Both the position numbers and the translations under genes were made by a program. Below the pieces are notes generated by a model. The model worked only from the letters and a program-made list of their open reading frames with translations, made no database searches and was not told where the DNA came from. From positions 352,001-416,000 of the forward strand of contig CM000432.1 in assembly GCA_000165345.1 (NCBI GenBank): a stretch of DNA of 64,000 nt. The letters run 5' to 3'. Below, piece by piece: positions 3,708-25,583 of the stretch. The stretch's first letter is position 1, and each line of letters opens with the position of its first letter.

Positions 3708-3733
3708 CTGTTGGGGGTATTGGCGCCAAAAAC
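3708..3733. promoter_or_regulatory. G-box plus E2F-like element CTGTTGGGGGTATTGGCGCCAAAAA
   Basis: A GC-rich island in AT-rich intergenic DNA between the divergent ABC transporter and pyrophosphatase genes. Nearby at 3621-3650 is GTACCGGCATTCCCGCCATTTCCCGCCAAG, which holds two tandem TTCCCGCC E2F cores. Confidence 0.5.
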
Positions 3734-19758: not shown

Positions 19759-22700
19759 ATGGAGGAAATAGATAGGAAAAAGTCTCACAAAACTCACCTA
19801 TCTAAAAGAAAGGTATTAAAGAAGAAATTAAAAAAGGAAGGAGCGGATAAGAAAGAGAGACATAATCCAAAGGTAAGTTTAATCATATTTATACTTTTTA
19901 AGATAGAATTTAACTCTGAGCTTTATCTCAATTACACTCTAGGCTTTCACATTTTCTGGAGGAGTTAAAAGTGTACAAAGAAGGGTACAAAGAACCCTTG
20001 ATATAACATCAAAAAGAGAAAAAGCACCAGGAATTGATAAAAGTAATGTAGAAGATGAGTCTACACCTCCATATATTGTTGCAGTTCAAGGTCCTCCTGG
20101 AGTAGGAAAAACAACTTTAATACGTTCTTTGGTGAAAAATTATACAAAATATAATTTGAATGTAATTGATGGAACTGTTACACTTGTATCATCGAAAAAT
20201 CGTCGTTTAACATTTATTGAATGCCCAAATGATATGCATGGTATGATAGATGTTGCAAAAGTTGCAGACCTCGTATTACTATTAATAGATGCAAGCTTTT
20301 CATTTGAAATGGAAACTTTTGAATTCTTAAATATATTACAAGTACATGGCTTTCCAAGAGTTCTTGGTGTTTTAACCCATTTGGATAAAATTGAAGATAA
20401 TAAGACTGTAAGGAAGACAAAAAAGAAGCTTAAAAATAGATTTTGGACTGAAATCTATAATGGAGCTAAATTATTCTATCTAAGCGGAATTCATAATGGT
20501 TTCTATAATAAAACTGAAATACGTAATTTATCCAGATTTATTGCAGTTCAAAAGTTTGAAAATCTATCATGGAGAAGTTCACATCCATATATAGTTTCTT
20601 TAAGAATTGAAGAAATTAATGATGATGATTATCATCAAAACAATAAGCAATCTTCTGAATCTAAAAATCCTGAAACAAGTGTCTACTTTTATGGATTTGT
20701 TAAGGGTGGAATAATGAGAAAAAACCAAAGTGTTCATATTCCAGGTCTTGGAGATTATTTGATTAATGATATTGATGAGTTTAATGATCCATGTCCTTTA
20801 CCAGAAACTAGTATAAAAAAGAATGGAACTAATGCAGGATTAAGAGTATTAAAGACTAAAGAAAGAAATATTTATGCTCCATATTGTGATGTGGGAAACG
20901 TTCAGATTGATTCTAACTCTATGTATATTCATATTCCAGACAATACTGTTAATTTTACCAGAAGAAAGGTTCTTTTTAACGATGATAACTCAGATTCAGA
21001 TTCAGATGTAGAAAACAATTCTCATAGTGAGGGAGAAGAGAATCTAGATGATGATATTCAAGATATTGATGAGTCCTTTGAAGAAGAAGAAGAAGATGAT
21101 GATAACTATTATCACAACGACATTAATCCAAAGAGTAATTCTTCACATTCAAGCTCAGAATCTAACTCTGAGGATGAAGAATATCTCCCAGAAGCTGTAA
21201 AATATGTTAGAAAACTACAAAAGTCTCAATCTGTTTTAAACAAAAGGGTTAATAATCTATCACTGAAACTACTTCCATCTTCAGAAGTTAGCCTAGAGAA
21301 CTCTATACTTTATGAAGAAAGTTCTGAAGCTGGTAAAAATAAAGGCTTTAGTAATGATGATGATCTTATGGAAACAGAGTATAAAGAAACTAATAACCAA
21401 AGTTATTACTCTGAAATTAAAAGTAAAAATAGTGATAACTTCCTATTCAGTAAAAATGTTAATTATTCATTAAAGGACTTGGTATACGGACGAAATGCTA
21501 AGGCTAGACAAGTATTTAAAAAGATGGTTTCTCAAAATAATGATAAAAGTATTAACTCTAAAAAAGCACTTTTCGATGATGATCTTGAAGATAGCCAAGA
21601 CGAGTTAAGTTCTGATACAGATGATATCGGTGAAATTCTTGATACTTTCAGAATAAATGATGTTTATATATATCCTACAAAACCTAAATCTATTCGAGAA
21701 TTAGTAAGTTACTGGACTGAAGAAAAGTACTATACTTTGAAACAAGAAAAATTCATCACGGGTGGAATAGATAATAGTGATGATGAAGAAGATCATCATA
21801 TTGATGGAGGATTAACAAACAAAGAAAATGAAGCTTCTGGGAATACTGAAGATATTAATGATTCTATCAATGATCAGAATAACGATTCATATTCTAATCA
21901 AGATAATTCAATGATGGATCTTGAAAGTAAAATTTTTAAAATAGGAAGGTATGTTCGTATAAGAATTGATAATATTGACAAAGAGTGGATCCGAAATCGT
22001 CAAGGGATTACTATTCTAGGAACTTTATTACCAGGAGAATCAGTTTTTGGTAATATTAATATTCGAATAAAAAAACATCGTTGGTATCCAAAAATACTAA
22101 AATCTGATGATGTATTAACATTTAGTATTGGTTGGAGAAGATTCCAGTCTATACCACTATATTCAATTGAGGATAGAAACGAAACAAGATATAGAATGCT
22201 TAAGTATACTCCTGAACACATGCATTGTTACTGTACAACTTATGGTCCTATCATACCATGTAACTTTGGTATATTGGCTATTAGAAGTTCAGAAAGAACA
22301 AGTAATTTTAGAATTGCTGCAACAGGAGTATCAGTGGAAATGCAAGCAAAAAGTAATATTGTTAAGAAATTGAAGCTTGTTGGTGAACCTAAGAAGATAC
22401 ATAAGAATACAGCATTTATTCACAAAATGTTTAATAGCGATTTAGAAGTTTCAAAGTTTATTGGAGCTAAAATTCAAACGGTTAGTGGAATTAGAGGACA
22501 AGTTAAAAAAGCTATTAGTACTCATGGACTTTTTAGAGCAACTTTTGAAGATAAAATACTTTTATCAGATATTGTATTTTGTAAAACATGGGTTTCTATG
22601 ACTCCAAGAGAATTCTATAATCCAGTAATAGATTTACCAACATGGAGAAGAATGAGAACTCAAGCTGAATTAAGAAGAGAATTAAATATTCCTTTAGCAA

Positions 22701-23098
22701 TTAAAGCAGATTCTGAGTATGTAACTAAACAAGATAGACCTGAAAAGAAGAGATTTAATAGTGTACCAGTACCAAGTAAATTAGAAAAAGAATTACCATA
22801 TGCTTCAAAAACAAAGAATGATTCTAAGAAGATAAAAGATAAGAATCAGGTAGCTGTAATAAAGAGTACATTTGAAAAAAGAGTAGCTAATTTATTCCAA
22901 AGACTATCAACTATTCAAAAAGAAAAGACTGCTAAACGTATTGAGAAGAAGAGAATTAAGAGAGAAATTAATATTAAGAGAAGACAACCATTAGAAAGAA
23001 TAAGAGAAGCCAAGAATGAGGAGAGGAAGAAGAGAAGATATGCATTACAAGGTATAAAGATAGATAAACAGAGAAGAAAATTGATGATGAAGGATTAA
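19759..23098 (+). CDS. BMS1: Ribosome biogenesis GTPase BMS1, two exons (19759-19872, 19943-23098; intron 19873-19942)
   Basis: The track shows a 69-aa ORF at 19759 and a 989-aa ORF from a TTG at 20129. After coding ...HNPK the intron runs GTAAGTTT...CTCTAG (70 nt, phase 0). Exon 2 continues AFTFSGGVKS...PPYIVAVQGPPGVGKTTLIRSLVKNYTK (P-loop) in frame. The conserved N-terminal GTPase domain of BMS1 is ...RRLTFIECPNDMHGMIDVAKVADLVLLLIDASFSFEMETFEFLNILQVHGFP. Confidence 0.85.
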
Positions 23099-23150: not shown

Positions 23151-24713
23151 TTAATGAATTAGTTGTAACATAATATTGTATTCTTCTTGTTCTTTCTTAG
23201 TATCTTGAATTAAATTATCAACAAAATTATCCATAAATTGAATATATTTACTTATACTTGAAGGTATTGTATAAGTTGTTGTATTTGATTTAATATCTTT
23301 TTGACAAACATTATTGTCATAATCATTTCTAATACTAGTAAGTGTAGGAACAGTTTTTGGATTAAAATTAAAATTTTGACTTGTATCAATAGGAATACAA
23401 AGTCTACCAGTAGAATGATGAATACAAAAAGGAGCTTTTAAAAGATGTCCAAGATCTTTACTGACATTAATATCTAATCTTGGATAACTATAAGCAAATA
23501 CAATTTCTTTAAGAAGAGTAAGATGGGATTTATCGGATGATTTTTGTAAAGTATTAGAAAGAAAATCCCAGAATTCAAGACATGTAAAATCAGATGTTTT
23601 TTGAATCCAATTTTGAACAGTTTGATATACTTTAGTATCTTCAGAAAGATGATTTAATACTTTTTCAATATGAATAGAATTGTGATCAAAAATTTGTTGG
23701 TTTTCTAGTATTTGATCAAAATATTGCATGCATATATTAAAACATCTATCTATAAATGGATGAGATTTAATCCCATTTTGATTATTTGAAGTCTTTAAAT
23801 TAACTTTCTTTTTTCTATTTTCATTACCAGTAACTAATGTTAAATAATCAATAATAGCAGTTCTTGCTTCAGAAGGTAGAAGTCTGGCTTTAGTATCACA
23901 AACCCAACAATGTACTCCTCTTCTTCCAGAATAAAGCCAAAGTATATGTTTAAAGCCAAAATCTTGTCTTAAAGAAGTATCTATAAGACGAATTGCTACA
24001 GTTACATAAAGCCAACATTTTTCACAAATAGTTTTCTCTTGACAACATGTTCGAATATCATCATAATCATTCATATCAATATCAAAGACTAATTCTCTTT
24101 GTACAGGCTTAAATCCAAGAGGGGAGATTTCTTTTTCAGAAATGGGGATATTGTAGATTGCTCCAATATCAAATTTATGTGGAGTTCTTGCAACAATTTC
24201 TTGTTTTAGTTGATCAATTGTTTTGAAATGTTGCCATCTGAGATATATTTCATCCTGATCAATTTCAGATTTAATAGTCATAGAGAATTCTCTGTTTTGA
24301 ATTAAGTTGTTTTGTCTTGAATTATCTAATTGGATAATAATATAAGAAATAAAGTTAAGTTATGTTTTATTCAATATAATTGAGTTAGGATGATTCATAG
24401 TAATGAATTAAATCATTAATTTATGAATGCATTGTTCCTAGAAATTTTACTTAGCTTACCTCCTATAGTTCCTACATTATATGAAAGCCATTTTCCCAAT
24501 ATATTGAATGGATAAATTTTATCTAAACAAAATGAATTATGAATATTCAAATGATTATACAGCCTTATTTCTCAATTTCTAATTTATATTTTAAGGCTGT
24601 TAATTATATAATTTAAACTTACTATAAAAGAACTTCAGATCAGCTTTGTCAATAAAGCTGTCATCAGCAAATATTAAAGTTTCATCTTTTTCAAAGTTAT
24701 CTTCAAGTACCAT
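23151..24713 (-). CDS. PRI1: DNA primase small (catalytic) subunit, at least 3 exons (exon1 about 24713-24623; exon2 about 24522-24460; exon3 about 24289-23151)
   Basis: The track ORF (23151-24281) carries the catalytic core ...ELVFDIDMNDYDDIRTCC...LWLYSGRRGVHCWVCD. Upstream on the same strand, exon 1 codes MVLEDNFEKDETLIFADDSFIDKADLKFFY followed by GTAAGT, and exon 2 codes NKIYPFNILGKWLSYNVGTIG followed by GTAAGC. These reproduce the conserved primase N-terminus (yeast EYYYKSLYPFKHIFNWLNHS; human LKLYYRRLFPYSQYYRWLNYG). The exon2-exon3 junction is placed at an AG 8 nt before the track ATG and is uncertain. Confidence 0.75.
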
Positions 24714-25016: not shown

Positions 25017-25038
25017 GTTTGGCGCCAAAACGGGTACC
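25017..25038. promoter_or_regulatory. E2F palindrome TTTGGCGCCAAAACG plus GGTACCG
   Basis: About 300 bp upstream of the corrected primase start and about 170 bp upstream of the 25206 gene. Its reverse complement, CGGTACCCGTTTTGGCGCCAAA, matches 8873-8897. Confidence 0.6.
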
Positions 25039-25205: not shown

Positions 25206-25583
25206 ATGGTAGAAATATATGCATCTGAAAGCTCGGAAGTTGGTAAGCAAGTGAATTGGAATTATATTAATAAGGATAGTCTTTCAAATATAAACGAATT
25301 AGATGTTACGGTATTGAAGGAGATATATAGTGAGATAATTGATTTTGCAAATAAGCTTGCAGAATCGAATAGAATAATGGAGGATTATAAAGATGATGAG
25401 GATATTGTGGATGCAATTGATGAGAATGAGGGAATAATTAAGAGAAAAAAGGAGATAATTGAATTAATTGAGAGTAGATTTAAGCAATTGAATAGGGAAG
25501 ATTTAATAAACGAATCAAAACTTGAAATAGATGGTAAAGATTGCAAAAATAATGAAGATAATAATATGGAAGAATATTTGTAA
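25206..25583 (+). CDS. Hypothetical small acidic protein (125 aa)
   Basis: ORF sharing the E2F-bearing bidirectional promoter with the primase gene. No family recognised. Confidence 0.5.
   Translation: MVEIYASESSEVGKQVNWNYINKDSLSNINELDVTVLKEIYSEIIDFANKLAESNRIMEDYKDDEDIVDAIDENEGIIKRKKEIIELIESRFKQLNREDLINESKLEIDGKDCKNNEDNNMEEYL

Follow-up and report, generated by a model that had tools for sequence, protein, structure and literature searches.

Three exons on the minus strand of a 64,000-nt stretch of Cryptosporidium parvum DNA (the window; G+C 27%), at 24713-24623, 24522-24460 and 24325-23151, very probably encode the catalytic (small) subunit of DNA primase, a protein of 442 aa. The gene is already annotated, and is ordinary. 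Within it lies a long minus-strand ORF of 376 aa (24281-23151) that begins MTIKSE and carries the Pfam domain DNA_primase_S at about 184 bits; a first-pass annotation had taken the start of this ORF to be an internal Met and had placed two short exons upstream, with donors, acceptors, coordinates and peptides that are all present in the sequence as it described them. Removal of the introns restores the frame, and the spliced coding sequence, 1329 nt long, is open. The parts of the gene are these:

Exon 1, 24623 to 24713, minus strand: 91 nt, with the ATG at 24713; encodes MVLEDNFEKDETLIFADDSFIDKADLKFFY and the first base of codon 31 (phase 1).
Intron 1, 24523 to 24622, minus strand: 100 nt, GTAAGT...TTTAG, 19% G+C, phase 1.
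Exon 2, 24460 to 24522, minus strand: 63 nt, preceded by TTTAG; encodes (N)KIYPFNILGKWLSYNVGTIG and the first base of the next codon.
Intron 2, 24326 to 24459, minus strand: 134 nt, GTAAGC...ATTAG, 21% G+C, phase 1.
Exon 3, 23151 to 24325, minus strand: 1175 nt including the stop codon (23153-23151); begins (D)NSRQNNLIQNREFS.
Acceptor AG of the first-pass annotation, 24290 to 24291, minus strand: would start exon 3 at 24289; judged unused.
ATG of MTIKSE, 24279 to 24281, minus strand: codes for an internal Met, number 67 in the full protein.

No in-frame start was found upstream of the ATG at 24713. Read without splicing, this ATG opens an ORF of only 37 codons, MVLEDNFEKDETLIFADDSFIDKADLKFFYSKFKLYN, which ends FFYSKFKLYN and a stop; the GTAAGT donor at 24622 falls after ...FFY and one further nucleotide. 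Exon 1 is part of an exact 442-aa database match, and its equivalent was recovered in five other species. Exon 3, which carries the catalytic domain, begins upstream of the ORF Met at 24281: the acceptor ATTAG at 24327-24326 is phase-compatible and adds DNSRQNNLIQNR before EFSMTIK. Each intron has a GT donor with the GTAAG consensus, an AG acceptor and two to six stops per frame (intron 1 has stops in all three frames and a length that is not a multiple of three), and by these signals both are ordinary U2-type GT-AG spliceosomal introns. The first-pass annotation had called a three-exon structure notable in an intron-poor genome, which overstates the case: introns occur in about 10.8% of C. 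parvum genes, which then average 2.6 exons, and the introns average 99 nt and 22% G+C (PMC4637869), so that the two described here are typical in size and composition. A 5' intron with the same splice signals is present in the adjacent BMS1 gene too. The minus-strand transcript would start upstream of 24713 and, on losing the two phase-1 introns of 100 and 134 nt, would encode the 442-aa subunit, in which exons 1 and 2, together with the opening 44 nt of exon 3, supply an N-terminal element made of two helices and the start of the REFS strand.

Every open GT-AG model that places 0-2 introns of 25-400 nt ahead of the ORF was listed, which gave 102 candidates, and each was scored with an HMM built from 112 primase small subunits of non-Cryptosporidium origin. 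The models that matter to the argument scored as follows:

Three exons, acceptor 24327-24326, exon 3 from 24325: 442 aa, 508.5 bits, rank 1 of 102.
Three exons, intron 2 from the donor 9 nt further on (exon 2 to 24451), exon 3 from 24325: 445 aa, 506.8 bits, rank 2.
Three exons, first-pass junction, exon 3 from 24289: 430 aa, 489.1 bits, rank 10.
Exon 2 skipped, exon 3 from 24325: 421 aa, 477.3 bits, rank 31.
ORF alone, start at Met 24281: 376 aa, 462.8 bits, rank 71.

The N-terminal exons contribute 46 bits over the ORF alone. Scored by itself against the same profile, the 66-aa spliced N-terminus reached 31.1 bits, to be set against a top score of 5.1 bits in a composition-preserving shuffle control (1,355 of 2,000 shuffles scored). 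When the 3,055 stop-to-stop peptides of the window were scored without splicing, the exon-2 peptide gave only E=0.11 and exon 1 no match to the profile, so a plain TBLASTN-style check would be marginal. These figures agree with the earlier assertion that the resemblance exists only with splicing; by this measure the primase match of the upstream exons is beyond chance only in spliced form. The 66 aa found no primase at E≤10 in a single-sequence phmmer search of the PDB, being too weak as a single short sequence, and for that reason the family profile was used instead. With the whole protein, phmmer against the PDB aligned residues 26-430 with human PRIM1 residues 13-409 at E about 1e-88, unbroken over both junctions.

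The Pfam match to DNA_primase_S (PF01896) is 183.6 bits against a gathering cut-off of 26.8 and takes in positions 1-162 of the 163 in the profile; leaving off the N-terminus does not change the domain scores. Residue invariance was judged on a 36-sequence alignment of eukaryotic primases. Invariant throughout are D133 and D135 (the DxD, in LVFDIDM) and D336 (in PRLD), which align with the human catalytic acids, Asp109 and Asp111 of the DxD and Asp306 as the third (PMC5333051), as are C145, C146, C152 and C155, a cluster that may bind zinc by analogy with human structures in which Zn is listed. The DxD, third Asp and cysteine cluster are all encoded in exon 3. On this family assignment the gene is a PRIM1/Pri1 orthologue of the AEP superfamily, and its product would be expected to act as a primase.

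The same alignment shows what the upstream exons contribute: L26, Y30, P35, W42, Y45, R63 and E64 are also invariant in all 36 sequences, P35, W42 and Y45 being held by exon 2, and the LxxYYxxxxPxxxxxxWLxY helical element followed by the REFS strand is present only in the spliced product. The conserved motifs cited from other primases in support of this element are real, that of yeast being exactly Pri1 residues 16-35 and that of human appearing in the PDB alignment. The AlphaFold2 model of the 442-aa protein (mean pLDDT 88, pTM 0.89) leaves residues 1-13 disordered, then predicts helices at 23-33 and 36-43, with pLDDT 94-96 over residues 21-40, a low-confidence loop at 50-55 (pLDDT about 61) and a beta-strand at 63-70 that begins four residues before Met67. 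The coding sequence for these two helices lies at the end of exon 1 and in exon 2. A protein started at MTIKSE would, on this model, lack the two helices and the start of strand 1, and with them the seven invariant residues, as the first-pass annotation had supposed of any record that begins there.

We compared the window with syntenic loci of C. andersoni, C. felis, C. ubiquitum, C. canis, C. bovis, C. tyzzeri and C. hominis, which share the order prenyltransferase, small TMA17-like gene, primase and BMS1. Splice enumeration in the first five of these gave a three-exon model as the best in 5/5. Both intron positions, and phase 1, are common to six species, the distant C. andersoni and C. bovis among them; intron 1 varies between 60 and 126 nt and intron 2 between 64 and 146 nt, with GTAAG or GTACG at the donors and YAG or AAG at the acceptors of the orthologue introns. 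Exon 2 has accumulated third-position synonymous changes (ATT/ATA/ATC, CCA/CCT, TTC/TTT, TAT/TAC, CTT/CTG/TTG) that keep KIYPF..KWLSY. C. hominis departs from C. parvum at 10 of the 234 intron positions and at 1 of the 220 exon positions (1/91 in exon 1, 5/100 in intron 1, 0/63 in exon 2, 5/134 in intron 2), and the single exon change, AAC to AAT, is synonymous. The comparison with C. tyzzeri, at 7 exon and 3 intron substitutions and one 5-nt indel, a deletion in C. tyzzeri intron 2, shows no such exon/intron contrast. Across the genus, these comparisons indicate that the upstream exons are under purifying selection.

The 442-aa product is letter-for-letter that of C. parvum QOY42038.1 (CPATCC_001635), WKS77341.1, WRK31988.1 and UniRef A0A7S7LHF1; a single residue separates it from C. 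hominis OLQ18740.1/PPA65497.1, and it is close to C. meleagridis POM83609.1. This identity places the window in C. parvum and means that the three-exon model was already public; the exons cannot be called unannotated, as they had been, when NCBI and UniRef carry the exact product from C. parvum and, from C. hominis and C. meleagridis, products that are nearly identical. The paper on the CPATCC annotation states RNA-seq support for 100% of its introns and the repair of many N-termini, a general statement that is not specific to this gene (PMC8744675). The supplements of two reannotation papers held no gene-specific splice evidence for primase, and a literature search on the Cryptosporidium primase small subunit gave nothing relevant. 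The junctions proposed here rest on homology, comparative genomics and that general statement; splicing in vivo would be expected to take this form.

The position of the junction between exons 2 and 3 had been flagged as uncertain in the first-pass annotation, which pointed to a phase-compatible AG 8 nt before the MTIKSE ATG. That AG does exist, at 24291-24290, and a model that ends intron 2 there keeps the frame open and scores 489.1 bits, giving a 430-aa protein that reads ...GTIG-EFSMTIK...; it is nevertheless not the best acceptor, and exon 3 from 24289 is very unlikely to be right. This junction falls 19.4 bits below that at 24325, which lies 36 nt upstream, and ranks only tenth of the 102; it deletes the invariant R63 together with a conserved helix at 59-62, whereas the LxxNREFS segment that would be lost is kept in the best models of the orthologues of five species; and its 430-aa product is absent from a 15-billion-protein collection in which the 442-aa version is present. 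Our preference for 24325 rests on its advantage of 19 bits, on the invariant Arg of NREFS, which it retains, and on a product identical to the deposited protein. The profile has less to say about the other end of the same intron. With GTAAAA at 24450, 9 nt downstream, as the donor, exon 2 would end at 24451 and GKL would be inserted, for a protein of 445 aa, at a cost of only 1.7 bits, and since the insertion falls in the low-confidence loop (pLDDT about 61) homology discriminates poorly here. GTAAGC at 24459 is nonetheless nearer than GTAAAA to the GTAAG donor that this intron has in all six species, and the deposited proteins use 24460, not 24451; we give the downstream donor little credence, about as little as the 24289 acceptor.

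Two simpler products would dispense with one or both of the upstream exons. Translation from the ORF Met at 24281 would give a truncated 376-aa primase, the upstream resemblance being then a decaying relic; a product of this kind is deposited for C. hominis (CUV05526.1, PPS96355.1), and Pfam domain scores, being indifferent to the N-terminus, do not speak against it. It forgoes the 46 bits, however, would be without two confidently predicted helices and the beginning of beta-strand 1, and is at odds with purifying selection on the upstream exons across the genus. The Met itself is Ile (ATA) in C. tyzzeri, so it cannot be a conserved start, and its position is occupied by Phe in most eukaryotic primases (REFSFTL); that it is internal, as first proposed, is upheld, and we regard the truncated protein as extremely improbable. 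Exon 2, for its part, lies between two phase-1 introns, so that skipping it would keep the frame, and the 421-aa result might be a real major or regulated isoform; the skip model still scores 477.3 bits, and the deposited C. tyzzeri protein TRY52266.1 takes this form. The skip model scores 31 bits below the best, however, and exon 2 encodes the invariant P35, W42 and Y45 and is present whole in the DNA of C. tyzzeri. Only three genes are listed as putatively alternatively spliced in the reannotation paper, under identifiers that differ from that of the primase gene (PMC8744675), and there is scarcely any chance that exon 2 is a cassette in this sense. A slightly broader proposal, that a regulated exon-2 cassette or intron retention yields an isoform without the N-terminal helices, for instance in non-replicating stages, is highly speculative; were exon 2 a cassette, the C. 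tyzzeri record that lacks it would be a real transcript and not an annotation error. The 24289 acceptor, the ORF-only start and exon-2 skipping were all rejected, for lower profile scores and for loss of invariant residues or helices.

With the three-exon, 442-aa model as reference, several deposited Cryptosporidium records of the gene, from C. parvum Iowa II and from other species, all at the same locus and in the same synteny as the window gene, appear truncated or mis-spliced at their 5' ends, errors of the sort against which the first-pass annotation had cautioned:

C. ubiquitum, 432 aa, locus 2501-2890: acceptor inside exon 2; NKIYPFGILG lost.
C. canis, 461 aa, locus 2501-2819: intron 1 retained in frame.
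C. bovis, 375 aa, locus 2242-2496: starts MPNREFS; two exons, beginning 259 nt upstream, are left out.
C. tyzzeri TRY52266.1, 421 aa, locus 1501-1890: exon 2 skipped, though intact in the DNA.
C. hominis CUV05526.1/PPS96355.1, 376 aa: ORF alone.
C. parvum Iowa II XP_625745.1, 402 aa, 'partial': reads into intron 2.

Phylogeny, structure modelling or drug-target work based on those records would have the N-terminal element missing or corrupted. The significance of the analysis is otherwise little beyond quality control, its practical by-product being this list of records with apparently wrong 5' ends. It does carry a lesson: a track built from ORFs only mis-starts genes that have introns, even where the genome is compact, and short 5' exons can be recovered from conserved motifs by a reader of the sequence.

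Upstream of the primase gene lies one further feature:

Palindromic E2F-like motif TGGCGCCA, 25020 to 25027, no strand assigned: 307 nt upstream of the exon-1 ATG.

It sits in a 492-nt divergent intergenic region between primase and the small TMA17-like gene, and is one of six copies in the window (the others at 3721, 8885, 27706, 44914 and 48672) where 0.06 would be expected, an enrichment of about 100-fold. As a promoter motif of C. parvum the E2F-like sequence is already known, in connection with genes of DNA replication (PMC3734150). In C. felis, C. ubiquitum, C. canis, C. tyzzeri and C. hominis the same motif precedes the primase ATG by 183-307 nt; no exact match was found at the C. andersoni or C. 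bovis primase loci. The copy at 25020-25027 is probably a promoter element, and its placement would fit a transcription start upstream of exon 1.

Two neighbouring genes were noticed in passing. The divergent one (25206-25583, plus strand) is an acidic ORF of 125 aa whose orthologues have a weak Pfam TMA17_helical match and which is syntenic in all the Cryptosporidium loci fetched. On the other side, a BMS1-like ribosome-biogenesis GTPase gene (19759-23098, plus strand) has a short 5' exon that the ORF track missed: exon 1 (19759-19872), a 70-nt intron (19873-19942, GTAAGT...CTAG) and exon 2 from 19943 together encode 1089 aa; orthologue products have 1057-1114 aa. Splicing in this predicted form restores an N-terminal NPKAFTFSGG and would place the proper ATG well upstream of the P-loop, GPPGVGKTT.

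The nearest known counterpart of the window gene is CPATCC_001635, annotated as DNA primase, whose 442-aa protein is identical, implying the same three exons and both junctions; there is no protein-level difference between them, and the two are the same gene or that of a near-identical isolate. Further afield, human PRIM1 (p49) and yeast Pri1, the catalytic subunits in the Pol alpha-primase complex (PDB 4BPU, 4RR2, 8FOC and others), are about 40% identical over residues 26-430, and share with the Cryptosporidium protein the N-terminal LxxYYxxxxPxxxxxxWLxY helices, the REFS(F/M)T strand 1, the DxD, the Asp of PRLD and the zinc cysteines. The Cryptosporidium primase is set apart from them by the loop that joins the helices to strand 1 (DNSRQNNLIQ, pLDDT about 61), which is longer and poorly conserved, and by small insertions and deletions elsewhere.
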